A stretch of DNA of 64,000 nt from Thermoanaerobaculia bacterium (GTDB taxonomy: Bacteria > Acidobacteriota > Thermoanaerobaculia > Multivoradales > Multivoraceae). The notes under the pieces are model-generated. The model had not been told where the DNA came from. It saw nothing but the letters and a program-made list of their open reading frames with translations, and searched no databases. This document shows, in pieces, positions 6,620 to 21,918 of the stretch. Where the stretch lies: contig OY762911.1 of assembly GCA_963666565.1 (NCBI GenBank), forward strand, positions 1,376,001 to 1,440,000, given 5' to 3'. A program made the translations under genes and the position numbers. The first letter of the stretch is position 1. Each line of letters starts with the position of its first letter.

Positions 6620-8374
6620 ATGAACTCAGTCCCAACGTCGAAAGGCCTCAAGCGTTGGCCGTTCACTGCTCTGGTGGCCCTCTTCTTGGCCGCCCCGGCT
6701 CTCTTGGCGCAGGAACCAAGCACGTCATCGGGCCAGCTAGACCTCACGGTCATTGTCGTGGCAGGGGACCTGACGTTGAAGCCGGTACCCAAGTGGGCTT
6801 TCGAGACGCGCTCAAGGAACACGAACGCGACGTACAGCCTGACTACGGGCTTTGATGGTCGGGCTCAACTCGATCTTCCTCCTGGTTCCTACGAGATCAC
6901 CGCCACCAGACCGCTGACGTTCGAGGGTCAGGAGTTCACCTGGAGTGTCTCCTTCGATGTAGCTGAAGGTAGGGTGACGACTCTGGAGTTGTCCAACGAC
7001 AACGTCGTTAGCCGGCCGGGCTCTGCACCTGCTGCAGGGGCAGCCGCGAATCTCAGTGAAGGCGAACTCTATCGGAAGATCCAGCACAGCGTGTTCAAGG
7101 TGATATCAGAGACTGGACACGGAAGCGGCTTCTTGGTGTATCCGTGGGCCGGCGTCATCTTGACGAACCACCATGTTGTCGCGAACTCGGACTATCTGGC
7201 CGTCCTCCTGTCACCCGGAAACAAGCACTCCGCTCATGTACTCGCCTTTGACGAGATCAACGACTTGGCAGTTCTTCAAGTACATCCTCGACTTGTTGAG
7301 AGTCTCCTCGCTCCGCCACTCGCGGAGGACGAGCCGGCTGCTGCTCCTGTCGAGGTCGGAGACACGGTCGTTGCCGTCGGAAGTCCACTTGCCACGGAGA
7401 CGATCTTGACGAGTGGTCTGGTCAGCAAACTGGAAGATGGGGCGATCTACAGCGATGTCAGCATCAACCCGGGAAACTCGGGAGGGCCGCTCTTCAACCT
7501 CCGTGGCGAGGTCGTGGGTATCAGTACGTTTGGGCTGAGTAGCGGTGGAGTCTCCCCCGGCTTGGCGGGAATCGTGCGCGTTCACTTGGCCAAAGCCGTG
7601 GTGGACCGAGCGCTTGAGTCGCCGCGCCTGAACTCGCCTCCGACTGACCGAAGATTGGCAGTTGCGTCGGAAACGCCGTTTCCAGCCGAAGTTCTCAGAG
7701 AACTGGTCGCTTCCGGTTCGTTCACTTCGGCTCGTCAGGCCAGAGTCACGGGCCGGCAGGTCAAGGAGTACCAGGTCGAAGCCGGCAAGTTCGATGTGCA
7801 GTTGATCACGCCGGTCCTGACAGCAGCGCTTGAAGTGGCCGAGGAGCGTGAGGCGGCCGGCGGTCGCACGAAGAGGAACAGAAGAAAGCAGGCCAAGGAT
7901 TACGCCGTAGGCGACCACTTCTACGAGTGGCGGAGATACGCCGGCGACTATCGAGCGGTGGTCACAGTCCAAGCTGTTCCTGAGATTCGACTGACGACCG
8001 GTTCGATCTTCGGCGCTGTCGCTGGTGGACTTGCGGGAGTGGCAACGCCACAGAAGTACCGCTTCAAGACTGACTTCGACAGGATGGCCCTTCTTCGCGA
8101 CGGGGTCGAAGTGGAGCCGATTTGGCCGGGTCGGGTTGCCAATGTTGTGCACGAAGAGGGCTTCGTGAGCATGAAGGACGTGGGCTACTACGGGATCTAC
8201 GAGTATCCACCCGAGGCGTTCGAGCCGCCCGCGGAACTCACCTTGAAGATCTGGAAGCAGGGTGTGGAGCAGCCGATCATCAAGGTGATTCCACAGCAAA
8301 AGCAGTGGCAAGTTTGGGAGGACTTTCGTCTCTACTTCGGCGCGGTCGAGAAACAGGGATCTTCCGGTCGATAG
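6620..8374 (+). CDS. Secreted trypsin-like (S1C) serine protease with N-terminal Ig/carboxypeptidase-regulatory-like domain and unrecognised C-terminal domain
   Basis: Signal peptide; LPPGSYEITA beta-sandwich; GSGF, LTNHHVV (His), NDLAVL (Asp), INPGNSGGPL (Ser); no PDZ recognised; visibly lower GC. Confidence 0.85.
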   Translation: MNSVPTSKGLKRWPFTALVALFLAAPALLAQEPSTSSGQLDLTVIVVAGDLTLKPVPKWAFETRSRNTNATYSLTTGFDGRAQLDLPPGSYEITATRPLTFEGQEFTWSVSFDVAEGRVTTLELSNDNVVSRPGSAPAAGAAANLSEGELYRKIQHSVFKVISETGHGSGFLVYPWAGVILTNHHVVANSDYLAVLLSPGNKHSAHVLAFDEINDLAVLQVHPRLVESLLAPPLAEDEPAAAPVEVGDTVVAVGSPLATETILTSGLVSKLEDGAIYSDVSINPGNSGGPLFNLRGEVVGISTFGLSSGGVSPGLAGIVRVHLAKAVVDRALESPRLNSPPTDRRLAVASETPFPAEVLRELVASGSFTSARQARVTGRQVKEYQVEAGKFDVQLITPVLTAALEVAEEREAAGGRTKRNRRKQAKDYAVGDHFYEWRRYAGDYRAVVTVQAVPEIRLTTGSIFGAVAGGLAGVATPQKYRFKTDFDRMALLRDGVEVEPIWPGRVANVVHEEGFVSMKDVGYYGIYEYPPEAFEPPAELTLKIWKQGVEQPIIKVIPQQKQWQVWEDFRLYFGAVEKQGSSGR

Positions 8375-8442
8375 CGCTCGCAGTGCAGCCCTGCTGGCTT
8401 GGGATTTGTCGCGTCGAGAGACGACGTGGTCGATAGAATCGG

Positions 8443-8751
8443 ATGATGCGGTTCCCCGAAACGGTCGAACGTCTACTCTGGGAGTACGACCTCGAAGCGC
8501 TGAGGGCGGCGCCCGAGTTGCCCGAGGTCGTGATCGAGCGCGTGATGGCACGCGGCGGCTGGGAGCCGATGCGCTGGCTGCTGTCGACATGCAGTCCGGA
8601 ACGGCGACGGCGTTTCCTGGAGGAACGCGGCTGGAAGGTGCTGCCGCCCCGGGAGCTCAGTTTCTGGGCTTTTGCCAGTTCCGTCTCTGAGGAACGGACG
8701 GCCGAGTGGGTGCGAGAGGCGCGCAAGCGCGAAGCCGCGTGGCGGGGATGA
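8443..8751 (+). CDS. DUF6922-like small protein, putative antitoxin of AbiE-type pair
   Basis: LLWEYD....VIERVM.RG...MRWL pattern; ATGA overlap with the downstream nucleotidyltransferase gene. Confidence 0.7.
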   Translation: MMRFPETVERLLWEYDLEALRAAPELPEVVIERVMARGGWEPMRWLLSTCSPERRRRFLEERGWKVLPPRELSFWAFASSVSEERTAEWVREARKREAAWRG

Positions 8752-9404
8752 GTTCGCTTGACTGGGAGGCTCTGGAGCCGAACGCGCGCGAGGCCTTCGC
8801 CGCCGTCTCGCTGGCGTTGGCCGGGGGCGACTTCTACCTGGCGGGGGGAACCGCACTTGCCCTCATGGAGGGGCATCGAGTTTCGGTGGACCTGGATGTC
8901 TTCGCCGAGCGGCTGCGGAGCACTGAGGACGTGCTGGGCCGTCTACGCGCCCAGATCCCGGAGTTTTCGGTCACGTCGGTGAGCGCGGGCACGGTCTACG
9001 TCGAGATCCTGGGGGTTCAGGTTTCGGTGATCGAGTACAGGTATCCGCTTCTCGGTCCTACCGTGTCCTCTGGTGCTGACGGCCTGGAACTGGCAAGCCG
9101 AGACGACATCGCGGCGATGAAGCTCTCGGCGATCGCGAATCGCGGCAGCCGGAAGGACTTCGTCGACCTCTGGATCCTGTTGAGTCGCCATCGGTCTCTG
9201 GCGGAGTACCTGGGGATCTACCTGAAGAAGTTCGAAGTACGGGACGCGGGCCACGTCGTTCGCAGTCTCGTTCACTTCGACGACGCGGAACGCGATCCGC
9301 CGCTTCGTCTCCTGATCGATCTCGACTGGCAGGAGCTCAAGACCGACTTCCGGTCGCACGTTGAGAGTCTGCTGGAGGATTGCCGAACCGCCAAGCGGGA
9401 CTGA
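8748..9404 (+). CDS. AbiEii/AbiGii-family nucleotidyltransferase toxin
   Basis: FYLAGGTALAL..GHRVSVDLDVF, MKL.AI..RG.RKDFVDL. Confidence 0.88.
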   Translation: MSSLDWEALEPNAREAFAAVSLALAGGDFYLAGGTALALMEGHRVSVDLDVFAERLRSTEDVLGRLRAQIPEFSVTSVSAGTVYVEILGVQVSVIEYRYPLLGPTVSSGADGLELASRDDIAAMKLSAIANRGSRKDFVDLWILLSRHRSLAEYLGIYLKKFEVRDAGHVVRSLVHFDDAERDPPLRLLIDLDWQELKTDFRSHVESLLEDCRTAKRD

Positions 9405-12341: not shown

Positions 12342-12523
12342 CCGCACCAGCCGGAGCGGCCGCTGAAGGCGGCTGATCGTTCAGGGAGACCGTTGGAGGA
12401 TCTGGCCTGGTCTCGGGCCTGGGCAAGCTGTGCAGAATCTGCACAGGTTCGGTGGGGAACGCGCCGGCGAGCCGCCCGCCGGGTCGGGGACTTGTATTCT
12501 GCGCCGTGGGCGGAACGCAGCGT

Positions 12524-14110
<1,587 letters not shown>

Positions 14111-14132
14111 GCCCAAGACAGGCCCGCTGCCC

Positions 14133-14561
14133 ATGATTGGCGCCGATACGACCTTCTTCAGGGAGTGTCTGGACCGGCTGGAGAGCTACTGCCGATTTCT
14201 GGACCGCGACCGCGAAGATGAAACCGACCGCCGATTCGGGCGGGAGATGTGCATCGAGCGGTTCGAGGTCGCTCTCGAACAGAGCGGCAAGCTGCTGAAG
14301 AAGACGTTGCGCCCGTGGTTCCCAAGCAACCGCGCGGTCGACCGACTGACGTTCCGGGACGCGTTCCGGCACGCGGCCAAGCACGGCCTGATCGACATCG
14401 AGGCGGCGGAGCGCTGGCTGACCTACCGTGACAGCCTGAACGGCACGGGCGATCCCGACGGCGACGACCCCGTCGTAATGGCGGCCGTCCAGCGGATGCC
14501 GGCCTTCGTCGCCGACGCCCGGGCGCTGGCCTCGATCATCGACCAGGCGCCCGATGACTGA
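14133..14561 (+). CDS. HEPN / nucleotidyltransferase substrate-binding (HI0074-like) protein with degenerate RNase motif
   Basis: [33 protein letters not shown]; the expected RNxxAHxY reads LNGTGDPD; overlaps MNT-hsdS start. Confidence 0.8.
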
Positions 14562-16122
14562 ACATCTCCACCTGCTTCCGCGCCACCGGGCGCAACTCGA
14601 AGCCCTCTTGAGCCAGCATCTCCCCGGCGTGGAGGTGTGGGCCTACGGCAGCCGCGTGAAGGGCCAGAGCCACGACGGCAGCGACCTGGATCTCGTGCTG
14701 CGGGGCTCCGGATTGCAGGAGATCGACCTCGATGCGCTCGCCGACTTCAGTCACGCGCTGCACGATTCGACGATTCCGTTCCTGGTCGAGGCCCGGGACT
14801 GGGCGCGGCTGCCGGAGCGGTTTCATCGGGAGATCGAGCGGGAGTATGTGGTGGTCAGAGAACCGACCAAGCATCGACCGGAACCCGCGGAGTGGCTGGA
14901 ACGCACTTGGGGCGATCTGGCGACGCTTGAGTACGGCAAGTCTCTTCGGGGCTACCGAGAAGGCACCGGTACCTGTCGGGTCTTCGGAACCAACGGGCCA
15001 ATCGGTTGGCATACCGACGCACTTGCCGACGGCCCAGGCGTGGTGATCGGCAGAAAGGGCGCCTATCGCGGAGTTCACTACTCGCCTGAGCCGTTCTTCG
15101 TAATTGATACCGCCTTCTACCTGAAGCCCAAGACGGACGATGACTTCGAGATGCGGTGGGCCTACTACGAGCTTCTTTCGCAGGACATCAATGGCCTGGA
15201 CAGCGGTTCGGCGATTCCGTCAACCAGCAGGGACTCCTTCTACTCGATGCCGGTGCAACTGCCGCCACCCCGCGACCAGCGCGCCATCGCCCACATCCTC
15301 GGCACGCTGGACGACAAGATCGAGCTGAACCGACGGATGAACGAGACGCTGGAGGCGATGGTGCGGGCGCTGTTCAAGTCCTGGTTCATCGACTTCGACC
15401 CGGTTCGCGCGAAGATCGAGGGTTGGGACACCGGATTGCCGCAAGACATCGCCGCCCTGTTCCCTGATCGGCTCGCGGACTCCGAGATCGGCGAGATACC
15501 CGAGGGGTGGGCGGTCGCAGGACTTGCCGAGTTGATTGAAATCAATCCGAGACGAGTGTTACGGCGAGGGGAAGTCGCTCCGTATCTCCCCATGGCGACC
15601 ATGCCGACTCGCGGACATGTGCCGACTTCGGTTGATCGTCGACCCTTCGGCTCGGGCATGCGCTTCGCGAACGGTGACACGCTGGTGGCTCGCATCACTC
15701 CATGTCTGGAGAACGGAAAAACAGCCTACGTCGATTTCTTGAGACAAGGTGAGGTTGGCTGGGGCTCTACGGAGTACATCGTCTTGAAGCCGAAACCGCC
15801 TCTTCCTGACCAGTTCGCCTACTGTCTTGCGCGCAGTGCAGCGTTCCGGGAGTTCGCGATCCGGAACATGAGCGGTACGAGCGGGCGTCAGCGGGTATCG
15901 GCAGCCGCGGTGAGCGGGCTCCTGACGGTCTCTCCTCCGGTGCGGCTCGTGGCCGTGTTAGGAGAGGTCATTGAGCCACTCTTCAAGCGAGCCAGTAGGG
16001 CTGCTCGTGAGTCGCGCCTGCTCTCGGCTCTCCGCGACACCCTCCTCCCCAAGCTCATCTCGGGCGAGATCCGCGTGCCGGACGCGGAATCGCTCGCCTC
16101 AGCGGCCCTTTCGGTGCAATGA
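14554..16122 (+). CDS. hsdS: MNT nucleotidyltransferase - type I specificity subunit fusion
   Basis: aa 1-100: EVWAYGSRVKGQSHDGSDLDLV (GSX10DXD), IPFLVEARDW. Remainder: TRD1, QRAIAHILGTLDDKIELNRRMNETLE, DSEIGEIPEGW, TRD2, LRDTLLPKLISGEIRV; no stop between the parts. Confidence 0.92.
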   Translation: MTEHLHLLPRHRAQLEALLSQHLPGVEVWAYGSRVKGQSHDGSDLDLVLRGSGLQEIDLDALADFSHALHDSTIPFLVEARDWARLPERFHREIEREYVVVREPTKHRPEPAEWLERTWGDLATLEYGKSLRGYREGTGTCRVFGTNGPIGWHTDALADGPGVVIGRKGAYRGVHYSPEPFFVIDTAFYLKPKTDDDFEMRWAYYELLSQDINGLDSGSAIPSTSRDSFYSMPVQLPPPRDQRAIAHILGTLDDKIELNRRMNETLEAMVRALFKSWFIDFDPVRAKIEGWDTGLPQDIAALFPDRLADSEIGEIPEGWAVAGLAELIEINPRRVLRRGEVAPYLPMATMPTRGHVPTSVDRRPFGSGMRFANGDTLVARITPCLENGKTAYVDFLRQGEVGWGSTEYIVLKPKPPLPDQFAYCLARSAAFREFAIRNMSGTSGRQRVSAAAVSGLLTVSPPVRLVAVLGEVIEPLFKRASRAARESRLLSALRDTLLPKLISGEIRVPDAESLASAALSVQ

Positions 16123-16602
16123 GCGAGAAGATGAGCCAGGCGACAGACCACGGCGAGGCAGTGCCGGGCGGCGGGCTCGTCGTCTACGAGGCCGCGGAGG
16201 GCGGGCTCGAACGGGCCGCAACTACCGAGAATTCCTCGGTGGTTCGATCCGAGGCCGCGGGTTCGACGCTGGGTTCTCGGGCGACGAGTCGGAGCAGGCG
16301 GCAACTGCGAAGGATCTCTTCGTAGTTCGATCCGAGAGAGTCCTTGGGTTCGACGTGCGGTGACCCACTACAACCTCGACGCGATCATCTCGGTCGGCTA
16401 CCGGGTGAGCTCGAGGCGTGCGGTCCGCTTCCGCCAGTCGGCGACCCGCACGCTCCGGGAGCACTTGGTGAGCGGCTACACCCTCAACCAGCGACGGCTG
16501 GCCGAGCGCGGACTGCGGGAGGCCCGAGAGACGCTCGACCTGCTTGCCCGGACCCTGCGCGGCCGGGTGCTGACCTTGGAGGTGGACGAGGTGACATACT
16601 GA
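16119..16602 (+). pseudogene. Fragmented RhuM-like (virulence RhuM family) gene
   Basis: GGLVVYEA.. / ATTENSSVVRSE / HYNLDAIISVGYRVSSRRA.RFRQ.AT.TLREHL..GYTLN split across frames, with internal deletion and duplication. Confidence 0.8.
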
Positions 16603-16635
16603 CTTCGCTCGAGGTGAGCTGCAACCGGAGGCGAC

Positions 16636-16821
16636 ATGGACCATACCTACTTCGTGGAGATCTCCTGGGACGAGGAGGCAGGCGTGTGGCACGTGTCGGA
16701 TACGGACTTCCCCGGCTTGGTCGCCGAGGCGGCATCGGAACGCGACTTGGTGGAGAAGATCCGAGCACTCCTGCCGGAACTGTACGATCTCAACCGGAGT
16801 TTCTTCGATGATCGGCGCTGA
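16636..16821 (+). CDS. DUF1902-like (HicB-like fold) small protein
   Basis: WDEEAGVW...D.PGLVAEA.S...L.EK....LPEL; GGAGG RBS. Confidence 0.75.
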   Translation: MDHTYFVEISWDEEAGVWHVSDTDFPGLVAEAASERDLVEKIRALLPELYDLNRSFFDDRR

Positions 16822-16866
16822 AGCGACTCCGATGCAGATGACGGCGAACAGGCTGGAGGCGATCCC

Positions 16867-18090
16867 GTGAAGGCGCCAGTACCACCCCGCGTCACGTGGC
16901 TGAAGGTGAGGAACTACAGGGCGCTGCGAGATGTGACGCTCTCGAACCTGACTCCGCTGACCGTGCTGCTGGGCCCGAACGGGAGCGGCAAGTCAACGGT
17001 CTTCGATGTCTTCGCCTTCCTGTCGGAGTGCTTCTCGGAGGGCATTCGCCGGCCGTGGGACCGACGTGGTCGGTTCCGTGAGCTAAGGAGTCGAGACCGC
17101 GGCGGTCCGATCATGATCGAGTTGAAGTACCGCGAGCGTCCCAAGACTCCGCTCATCACGTACCACCTGGAAATCGACGAGGAAAGGGGCCGTCCCGTCG
17201 TTACCCACGAGTGGTTGCGGTGGACACGCGGAAGCGGTGCCGGGCGGCCGTTCAACTTCATGGAGTACCGGCTCGGAGAAGGCGTAGTCATCACCGGGGA
17301 GGCGCCGGAGAGAAACGACAAACGGGTGCCCCGCAGCCTCGCGGGGCCCGATGTGCTGGCTGTCAGCACTCTCGGCATGCTGGCCGAGAATCCGCGGGTG
17401 ATCGCACTTCGCGACTTCGTGACGAGTTGGCATCTCTCCTACCTTTCTGCAGATGCCGCCAGAGGCAACCCGGAGGCGGGCGGGGAGGAGAGGCTGTCGC
17501 CGACGGGTGACAACTTGGCGAACGTTGTGCAGCACCTGAAGGAGGAGCATCCGGATCGCCTGGAGGAGGTGTTCGGGATCTTGCGTCGTCGCGTGCCCCG
17601 GATCGAAGAGGTCCAGGCCGAGAGCATGGCGGATGGACGACTCCTGCTTCGGCTCAAGGATGCGCCATTCGCAACGCCGGTGCTGTCTCGGTTCGCCTCT
17701 GACGGCACCCTGAAGATGTTGGCGTACCTGACGCTTCTCTACGATCCCGACCCGCCCAGACTGATCGGCATCGAAGAGCCGGAGAACTTCCTTCACCCTC
17801 GCCTCCTGCCGGAACTGGGCGAAGAGTGCCGCGCCGCTTCGGCTCGCACACAGTTGCTGATCACGACCCACTCGCCGTTCTTTCTGGACGCCCTGAGACC
17901 TCAGGAAGTGCGGGTGCTCTGGCGGGACGGAGACGGCTACACGCGTACCGAGTTGCTCTCGAAGATCAGGGGTGTCACGGAGTTCGTGAGGGAGGGCGCG
18001 AGACTCGGCGATCTCTGGATGGAAGGACACTTCGGCGTCGGGGACCCGTTGGTCAACGAGGGCGCCGCGGTCGGCGGGAGAAGCAGGTGA
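16867..18090 (+). CDS. ABC-type (AAA_21/OLD-like) ATPase
   Basis: Walker A GPNGSGKS, signature ASDGTLK, Walker B/D-loop [13 protein letters not shown]-loop ITTHSP, LGDLW..G. Confidence 0.9.
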
Positions 18091-18710
18091 CGGAGACGAG
18101 CGTGCGTCACTTCGAGTTTCTGGTCGAGGAACCGTCGATGGAAGCGTTCCTCCGTGTGCTGCTTCCACGTCTGCTGCCGCACGACCGTACGTTCCACGTT
18201 CACGCTTTCGGAGGCAAGCCTGATCTTCGGCGCAAGCTCGACGAACGCTTGCGCGGCTACTCAAAGTGGCTGCCGACGGACTGGCGAGTTGTCGTGATGG
18301 TGGACCGCGACGAGGACGATTGCCTGGTCCTCAAGGCAGAGATGGAAGCAGCGGCGGCAGCCGCGGGCCTCCGTACTCGAAGCGCGGTGTCGGCAGCGTC
18401 TTGGCAGGTGGCGAACCGCGTCGTGGTTGAGGAACTGGAGGCGTGGTTCTTCGGCGACTGGCGGGCGGTTCGCGGTGCGTACCCGCGTGTAGCGGCAAGT
18501 ACGCCGAAACAGAGGCGCTATCGCGACCCGGACTTGATCGTGGGTACCTGGGAGGCATTCGAGCGTATTCTGAGAGGGCATGGCTACTTCGTCACTGGCT
18601 TGCGCAAGACGGAGGCGGCGCGTGCCGTTGCCGCTTACATGGAGCCCTCGGTCAATCGGTCGCATAGTTTTTGCGTCTTCAGAGATCTGATTCTGGAGGC
18701 TGTGGCCTGA
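18087..18710 (+). CDS. DUF4276-like Toprim-fold protein
   Basis: [30 protein letters not shown]; GTGA overlap with ATPase stop. Confidence 0.82.
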
Positions 18711-18744
18711 CCGAGCCGCTTGTCCGGGTGGAATCGTTGGGCGC

Positions 18745-21918
<3,174 letters not shown>

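Follow-up and report, generated by a model that had tools for sequence, protein, structure and literature searches.

An MNT::HsdS fusion and a HEPN gene in a type I R-M operon

The window analysed here is a stretch of 64,000 nucleotides (nt) from a Thermoanaerobaculia bacterium (GCA_963666565.1, contig OY762911.1, positions 1,376,001-1,440,000, forward strand). Its positions 12452-21918 hold a type I restriction-modification (R-M) operon, all genes of which lie on the plus strand, and between hsdM and hsdR we find a small HEPN-fold gene followed by an open reading frame (ORF) in which a minimal nucleotidyltransferase (MNT) domain is joined to the specificity subunit, HsdS (Table 1). A first account of this DNA, made from the letters alone (hereafter the sequence-only reading), had proposed the order hsdM, HEPN, MNT::HsdS with tight spacing or overlap, an exact GSX10DXD motif in the MNT domain and a stop-free run from that domain into a complete HsdS with two target recognition domains (TRDs). 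The order and the spacing are as proposed, the HEPN gene and the fusion gene overlapping by 8 nt; the motif is present as G32-S33-x10-D44-L45-D46; and the 522-residue ORF is uninterrupted, the AlphaFold2 model and the Foldseek comparisons agreeing with a two-TRD HsdS. What the sequence-only reading missed is that the HEPN protein of the window is devoid of the R-x4-H-x-Y motif.

Table 1. Features of the type I R-M operon, in positions of the window
Feature	Position	Strand	Basis
hsdM, type I methyltransferase subunit, 552 aa	12452..14110	+	Pfam N6_Mtase E 4e-105, HsdM_N E 6e-29; PADLOC MTase_I E 2e-222
HEPN-fold gene, HI0074 / NTase_sub_bind type, 142 aa	14133..14561	+	Pfam PF08780, 38.7 bits (cut-off 31.8); PDB 1jog E 2.5e-4
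Site of the lost R-x4-H-x-Y in HEPN: L102, D107, D109 (LNGTGDPD)	14436..14459	+	Alignments with 31 relatives and HI0074
8-nt overlap of the HEPN stop (TGA) and the MNT::hsdS start (ATG), ATGACTGA	14554..14561	+	Sequence
MNT::HsdS fusion ORF, 522 aa, stop-free	14554..16122	+	NTP_transf_2/Polbeta and Methylase_S
MNT domain, residues 1-102, HI0073-like	14554..14859	+	PDB 1no5; Pfam NTP_transf_2
MNT catalytic motif G32-S33-x10-D44-x-D46	14647..14691	+	Sequence
In-frame GTG GTG (V99, V100), candidate internal start; GGGAG at 14840-14844	14848..14853	+	Sequence
Linker, residues 103-113, variable in length and sequence	14860..14892	+	pLDDT <50 at 106-111; junction columns of the alignment gapped and unconserved
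HsdS part, residues 114-522: TRD1, central helix, TRD2, C-terminal helix	14893..16122	+	AlphaFold2, Foldseek, PADLOC
RhuM-family fragment, profile positions 17-71 of 252 only	16348..16512	+	Pfam PF13310 E 7e-18, frame 16135..16602
DUF1902 small protein, 61 aa, just 5' of the HEC-01 ATPase	16636..16821	+	Pfam PF08972 E 4e-13
HEC-01A-type ABC/AAA_21 ATPase	16867..18090	+	Pfam AAA_21 E 1.5e-33; PADLOC HEC-01A E 6e-156
HEC-01B-type DUF4276 (TOPRIM-like), start approximate, in ORF 17826..18710	18108..18710	+	PADLOC HEC-01B E 8e-82
hsdR, 1057 aa	18745..21918	+	Pfam HSDR_N, SWI2_SNF2, T1RH-like_C; PADLOC REase_I E 0

Domain structure of the fusion protein

Pfam recognises NTP_transf_2/Polbeta at residues 12-100 of the fusion and Methylase_S at residues 113-267, the former passing marginally (21.9 bits for NTP_transf_2, cut-off 21) and the latter with 55 bits (cut-off 22), and PADLOC Specificity_I covers residues 159-516 (E 6e-107). 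The AlphaFold2 model, with a mean predicted local distance difference test score (pLDDT) of 86.5, consists of a compact alpha/beta domain at residues 1-102, a short disordered linker of low confidence, and then TRD1 (115-236), a helix (239-278), TRD2 (307-460) and a second helix (463-503). Foldseek matches HsdS structures, namely 1ydx (E 4e-15), 1yf2 and EcoKI 2y7c, and hsdM and hsdR are found on the same strand. Residues 114-522 are therefore predicted, from the model and the alignments together, to be a complete HsdS with two TRDs and two long helices. The PADLOC model PDLC03138 ('Specificity_I') aligns to the fusion from residue 10 and so spans the MNT domain, which means that a curated S-subunit model already includes fused proteins without their being recognised as such.

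The first 100 residues superimpose on HI0073 (1no5) with a TM score of 0.92 and a root-mean-square deviation of 1.3, a relationship also found by sequence (E 1.3e-13), and Foldseek returns in addition the MNT antitoxins 8xeo and 7bxo, and 6m6u. Besides the exact G-S-x10-D-x-D, the signature of minimal nucleotidyltransferases is completed by a later acidic residue, E79 in FLVEA, and G32, S33, R34, S43, D44, L45 and D46 are invariant in all 32 MNT domains aligned. The domain falls short of the NCBIfam equivalog MntA_antitoxin (NF047752), against which it scores 21.6 bits with a cut-off of 60.

The fusion recurs in many phyla

Among the 119 homologues listed, classified with hidden Markov models that we built from an alignment of the fusion family and that are thus tuned to this HsdS family, 95 consist of MNT and HsdS, 7 of HEPN, MNT and HsdS, and 17 of HsdS alone, so that 102 of 119 are fused; where the database gives a name, it is 'restriction endonuclease subunit S'. 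G-S-x10-D-x-D is intact in 99 of the 102 fused proteins. A search with the MNT domain only, in 1.84 billion cluster representatives, gave 2288 matches at E <= 0.001, and in the best 150 of these the domain is joined to HsdS in at least 61, free in 45, combined with HEPN in 4 and accompanied by an unassigned tail in 40 (Pfam assigns Methylase_S to 6 or 7 of the 40). Of the architectures of the nearest MNT relatives, in these best 150 representatives, the fused form is the most frequent. In a quick maximum-likelihood tree of 154 MNT domains the fused or free label changes 18 times, as against 32.8 +/- 2.0 times when the labels are shuffled, and at least 4 of the changes are forced by well-supported branches, in a short alignment that leaves most forks unresolved.

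Of 600 pattern matches in a genome collection, 593 could be confirmed, and the 80 best loci were carried forward; MNT and HsdS share a single open frame in 17 of these 80, a share that is inflated because the loci were ranked by their tblastn match to the fused query. The 17 include members of the Zixibacteria, Gamma- and Betaproteobacteria, Vicinamibacteria, Thermodesulfobacteriota, Dehalococcoidia, Nitrospirota and Acidimicrobiia. In the genus of the window, the arrangement hsdM-HEPN-MNT::hsdS-hsdR is found in 7 further places, and the frame is open in 7 of the 8 R-M-embedded copies. The type of TRD1 varies among fused proteins and the MNT domain stays constant. The sequence-only reading had allowed that the fusion might turn out to be a singleton, with a stop between MNT and hsdS in close relatives, and these counts (102 of 119 homologues, 17 of the best 80 loci, 7 of the 8 copies in the genus) answer it in favour of the fusion. 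To judge from the comparative sequence data, the fusion is genuine and is maintained in evolution.

Variants of the architecture were also seen. Seven clusters (P0064, P0076, P0078, P0080, P0082, P0089 and P0101) are triple HEPN::MNT::HsdS fusions of 666-676 residues, in which the HEPN part keeps the R and mostly the H but reads D where the acceptor Y would stand (RNDTAHDDG; RNDTAR in P0064). Five further HsdS relatives (P0011, P0031, P0043, P0058 and P0188; 685-743 residues, one of 414) carry a DUF559/MTES_1575 Vsr-like endonuclease domain, and some of them also have an N-terminal MNT domain. At two loci (L003, 4475-7614; L062, 5832-8300), an additional free HEPN-MNT pair, or what is left of one, stands immediately 5' of HEPN-MNT::HsdS, giving tandem modules of different subtypes.

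Gene order and the question of an internal start

The search that the sequence-only reading had called for, for proteins that unite MNT and Methylase_S and for their HEPN neighbours, shows a recurrent fusion with a HEPN ORF directly 5' of MNT::HsdS in all 25 distinct fused loci, and in 22 of the 25 the start codon of the fusion overlaps the HEPN stop by 1-10 nt. Within 6-kb flanks, hsdM lies 5' in 16 of 17 fused loci and hsdR lies 3' in 14 of 17. The HEPN gene also comes first in three free HEPN-MNT pairs, without R-M genes, in genomes of the same genus (L093, L099 and L100). The usual order of MNT-HEPN dyads, including the type VII toxin-antitoxin (TA) pairs, is MNT first (PMC3710099), and it was not encountered at any of these loci; HEPN followed by MNT is the sole order that permits MNT to read into hsdS. 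Open frames of 620-722 residues ending in HEPN suggested an HsdM::HEPN fusion, which we reject because the frame of HsdM is another one that overlaps them. In GC-rich DNA the length of an ORF is exaggerated when it is taken from stop to stop, and these long frames represent read-through 5' of the true HEPN start.

The sequence-only reading also pointed to in-frame GTG codons at 14848 and 14851, with GGGAG upstream, as a possible source of unfused HsdS. The GTGs and the GGGAG (14840-14844) are there, the latter encoding the conserved E-R-E of the MNT domain, but as a conserved product an internally initiated HsdS does not stand: in a scan from -6 to +15 residues around the MNT end, a Shine-Dalgarno (SD)-like site together with a start codon is found at the junction in just 8 of the 25 fused genes, 6 of the 25 have no start codon there at all, and in L096, the closest relative that is intact, the VVV position offers no start codon. 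As such sites occur at a minority of junctions and L096 has no start there, the full-length protein is the conserved product.

These data also bear on the possibility that the fusion is incidental, that is, that a lost stop joined MNT to hsdS, that working HsdS arises by internal initiation and that the MNT-HEPN pair is a decaying passenger. The GGGAG and GTG at the junction in the window would fit such a history, as would a locus of the same genus (L095; G004, 6815-9064) in which a frameshift falls exactly at the junction, right after MNT, with a stop in HsdS and the HEPN and MNT frames still open; at another locus (L010) MNT and HsdS are adjacent separate genes, the MNT motif is damaged in 3 of 102 fused proteins, and the HEPN of the window has lost its own motif. 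Yet the frame stays open in different phyla and with different TRD1 types, the fused form is the commonest among the nearest MNT relatives, 17 of the 25 junctions do not combine an SD-like site with a start, and both the HEPN and the MNT genes evolve with ratios of nonsynonymous to synonymous substitution (dN/dS) well under 1, as described below. We therefore regard an incidental fusion as very improbable indeed.

A HEPN partner without its active-site motif, yet retained

According to PMC11586414, R-x4-H-x-Y serves in HEPN toxins of this kind as the RNase site and at the same time as the acceptor of nucleoside monophosphate. Where relatives read RNDTAHDYG, and HI0074 reads RNITSHTY, the HEPN of the window reads LNGTGDPDG: L102 and D107 stand at the sites of R and H, so that no R-x4-6-H RNase motif is present, and D109 replaces the Tyr that accepts AMP. 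A frameshift was considered as the source of the change and rejected, since both flanks align in frame, and the motif was thus lost by substitution. Membership of PF08780 is clear of its cut-off, the TIGR01987 score (26.5 bits) is below that model's cut-off of 55.8, and PADLOC assigns no family to the gene.

The loss is shared. Of 32 HEPN proteins from the loci, 22 retain R, H and Y, 2 retain R and H only, 1 has N for H and 7 have none of the three residues (R and H are thus both present in 24 of 32); all 7 motif-less proteins come from the genus of the window and each is encoded beside MNT::HsdS. In a larger set of 121 nearest HEPN sequences (the window and 120 listed homologue clusters), 19 have the L-type loop of the window, 17 a V/A-type loop (AVDGLVDRE), 6 R without H, 75 R and H, and 4 other combinations, the motif-less total being 36 of 121. 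One V-type cluster is, by its NCBI name, from a metagenome-assembled genome of Chloroflexi. The replacement loop differs between the two motif-less clades (LNGxGxPDG and VDGLVDRE), and in both it is strongly acidic (GDPDGDD, within 14430-14475 in the window; VDGLVDREDDG). We considered RHAAKH, at HEPN residues 79-84, as a substitute R-x4-H and rejected it, since its H is conserved in the closest subgroup only and the segment lies in the predicted interface with MNT; no alternative conserved catalytic residues were seen.

As measured by a simple Nei-Gojobori count over 141 codons in a GC-rich genome, dN/dS is 0.04-0.48 for pairs of motif-less HEPN genes as compared with 0.12-0.32 for motif-bearing pairs of the same genus, and 0.20-0.28 for the HEPN of the window against relatives 79% identical to it. 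The MNT domains that adjoin motif-less HEPN genes give 0.08-0.30 and keep G-S-x10-D-x-D. These values indicate that the motif-less HEPN genes are under purifying selection and are not decaying.

A predicted MNT-HEPN complex

Prediction of a complex between MNT (residues 1-110) and the HEPN of the window gave a score of 0.72, as against 0.48 for the best control, with contacts agreeing by at least 97% between runs and a partner pLDDT of 84; of the solved complexes, 116 of 157 attain this mark, as do 2 of 215 mismatched pairs, in a calibration that does not extend to user-made alignments such as ours. The predicted interface brings MNT residues 8, 40-44 and 70-77 against HEPN residues 73-100 (FRHAAKHGL...ERW), the most conserved segment of the HEPN protein. 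The prediction points to a likeness to solved HEPN-MNT pairs, and the HEPN of the window is predicted to bind MNT.

Relation to known systems

The closest solved relatives of both partners are HI0073 and HI0074 of Haemophilus influenzae (1NO5 and 1JOG), with which the G-S-x10-D-x-D motif is shared. HI0073, however, is a free protein of 114 residues whereas the MNT of the window is fused to HsdS, and HI0074 carries RNITSHTY where the HEPN of the window has LNGTGDPD. HI0073/HI0074 is called a 'two protein nucleotidyl transferase' in the title of its PDB entry and in that of the cited paper, and NCBI names one HEPN relative 'nucleotidyltransferase substrate binding protein'. It could be, then, that the module has never been a TA system in its R-M context but is throughout the family a two-protein nucleotidyltransferase that regulates or assists R-M, acting for example on HsdM or HsdR, on DNA ends or on a phage protein, with HEPN as its substrate-binding subunit. 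The homology and the NCBI name agree with this, as do the HEPN-first order, which is unlike that of most dyads (PMC3710099), and the 7 triple-fusion clusters. It is difficult to reconcile, however, with the full R-x4-H-x-Y in 22 of 32 HEPN partners, with the free pairs of the same subfamily that occur without R-M genes (L093, L099 and L100), like mobile TA pairs, and with the demonstration that related HEPN-MNT pairs are TA systems (PMC7641770, PMC11586414). We hold it to be decidedly unlikely.

The type VII pairs HepT/MntA (Shewanella, Aphanizomenon and the Legionella HEPN-MNT pair 8XEH) likewise combine a HEPN partner with a G-S-x10-D-x-D MNT, and R-x4-H-x-Y is common to them and to the motif-bearing relatives of the window. 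In contrast to HepT/MntA, the window has the HEPN gene first, the MNT fused to HsdS and a HEPN without R, H and Y; moreover, HepT belongs to DUF86 and the HEPN of the window to PF08780. PrrC/EcoprrI is similar in that a HEPN-superfamily gene lies inside an hsdMSR operon and a physical tie to the R-M enzyme is the proposed means of control (PMC3506569, bioRxiv 10.1101/2024.01.29.577857). PrrC, however, has no MNT; it is an ABC-ATPase::HEPN protein whose binding to the R-M enzyme is non-covalent, whereas in the window the tie between MNT and HsdS is covalent and the HEPN is small and stands alone. Thus, the HEPN of the window shares with PrrC-type proteins the location in hsdMSR, between hsdM and hsdS, but at 142 residues, with no ATPase, not the ABC-ATPase fusion. 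FhepTA, a fused MNT-HEPN protein (PMC13000451), belongs to the same two families, and there tethering alters the regulation of the pair; in the domesticated MNT and HEPN enzymes KNTase and GlnE/GlnD, an inactive HEPN is described as a binding module. In FhepTA, KNTase and GlnE/GlnD the MNT is fused to HEPN, whereas in the family of the window it is fused to HsdS and the HEPN is separate, except in the 7 triple-fusion clusters.

Embedding of HEPN toxins in R-M operons, type VII HEPN/MNT systems, MNT-HEPN fusions and HI0073/HI0074 are all already known, and PMC3710099 reports a clustering of MNT-associated HEPN families with R-M operons and their occasional fusion to MNT and methylase domains. 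The main text of PMC13000451 contains neither 'Restriction' nor 'HsdS'. Our full-text literature searches found no description of an MNT-HsdS fusion or of an adjoining clade of motif-less HEPN proteins, although the supplements to PMC3710099 and bioRxiv 10.1101/2024.01.29.577857 may list such architectures.

Neighbouring genes

Between hsdS and hsdR the operon contains a second embedded module (16867-18710), an AAA_21/ABC ATPase with a DUF4276 protein, and the same pair is present in a relative (L098). The DUF4276 match falls at residues 100-288 of its ORF (Pfam, E 4e-28). The pair is of the HEC-01 type, for which no protection was found against the phages tested (bioRxiv 10.1101/2024.01.29.577857). 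The RhuM fragment (16135-16602) appears to be what is left of a RhuM-like gene, a kind of gene frequent in R-M operons. About 3 kb 5' of hsdM, an AbiEii-type nucleotidyltransferase toxin domain is encoded at 8706..9404 (PF08843, E 1e-17), preceded by a small ORF (8443-9404 for the two) with a weak DUF6922 match, at 23.5 bits under the cut-off of 27. The AbiEii-type gene and the DUF6922-like ORF may form another TA or abortive-infection pair.

Interpretation

We consider it on balance probable that the locus encodes an R-M-embedded HEPN/MNT module, tethered through its MNT to HsdS, which in the lineage of the window is not a canonical RNase toxin any more. The family is related to type VII TA pairs. 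Each M2S1 or R2M2S1 complex would carry one MNT domain, on which a HEPN protein, co-translated just ahead of MNT::HsdS, would dock. In relatives with the motif, MNT would be expected to nucleotidylylate the Tyr of R-x4-H-x-Y, as MntA does, and so to keep the RNase silent (PMC7641770, PMC11586414). Since MNT exists only within HsdS, silencing would depend on the continued supply and the integrity of the specificity subunit, and if the operon were lost or the S subunit interfered with, the RNase would be freed, with addiction or abortive infection as the outcome, on the principle of PrrC. Tethering as a guard or addiction device, proposed in the sequence-only reading, is to this extent a reasonable hypothesis for the wider family, in which 22 of 32 HEPN proteins keep R, H and Y; its RNase-silencing step, by AMPylation of the MntA type, finds no support at the window, where L102, D107 and D109 occupy the three sites. 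As the RNase residues and the acceptor Tyr are gone, we read the pair of the window clade as domesticated: it would most likely be a two-part nucleotidyltransferase whose HEPN serves as a non-catalytic binding or regulatory subunit on the R-M enzyme. It has been reported that HEPN domains fused to MNT typically miss their catalytic residues, and these have been read as domesticated substrate-binding units (PMC3710099).

A bolder version, possible if on the unlikely side, is that HEPN with MNT::HsdS forms a widespread second layer in type I R-M systems, in which the state of the R-M complex sets the activity of the HEPN effector, and that the MNT of the window clade has acquired a new substrate. 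The state of the complex might be altered by assembly, by DNA mimics such as Ocr, by proteolysis or by loss of the operon. That an acidic loop has taken the place of the RNase site while MNT has been retained as an enzyme suggests such a new substrate, which would be on the R-M enzyme or on an invader.

Several points weigh against the domesticated reading. No result points to a target of MNT other than HEPN. Motif-less HEPN proteins were still toxic in a genome-scale screen (PMC3710099), so that loss of R, H and Y is no proof that toxicity has been lost. The D-x-D is substituted in P0034, P0045 and P0099 (DLG, ALD and NLD, respectively), whose MNT domains may be inactive, and the frameshift in L095 adds that decay of these genes does occur. 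With an SD-like site and a GTG at its junction, the genome of the window may also make a second, shorter and unfused HsdS. The score of the predicted complex may reflect memory of the solved HEPN-MNT complexes 8XEH and 5YEP, and the use of alignments outside the calibration, the simple dN/dS count and the ranking of loci by a fused query count on the same side.

The toxicity of motif-less HEPN proteins in that screen means that the earlier guard model survives, with a reduced likelihood. A canonical guard or addiction module could still be active in the window if the HEPN were toxic through another site, or non-catalytically, and were neutralised by the HsdS-tethered MNT through binding or through modification of another HEPN residue, so that damage to, or loss of, the R-M system would result in growth arrest or abortive infection. 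In favour of such a module are the MNT motif, intact and under purifying selection beside motif-less HEPN genes, the purifying selection on these genes themselves and the retained predicted interface between MNT and the HEPN of the window, and it has a precedent in PrrC/EcoprrI, where a type I R-M enzyme holds the toxin (PMC3506569, bioRxiv 10.1101/2024.01.29.577857). However, none of R, H and the acceptor Y is left in the HEPN of the window, and the acidic replacement loop differs between the two motif-less clades; other conserved catalytic residues were not seen, RHAAKH being part of the predicted interface and its H not conserved outside the closest subgroup. We judge an active guard module in the window to be unlikely.

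R-M-embedded toxins, of which PrrC is the model, are the classic case of one defence backing another, and communication between such layers is known for very few systems. Covalent fusion of a toxin-controlling enzyme to HsdS would be the most direct coupling possible, and with 102 of the 119 closest homologues listed, from many phyla, the fusion is common enough for a general design. A test bed of four components, M2S1 with or without MNT and HEPN with or without the motif, could show whether the integrity of the R-M complex gates the RNase, and the motif-less clade offers a natural contrast for the role of MNT once the toxin has been disarmed.

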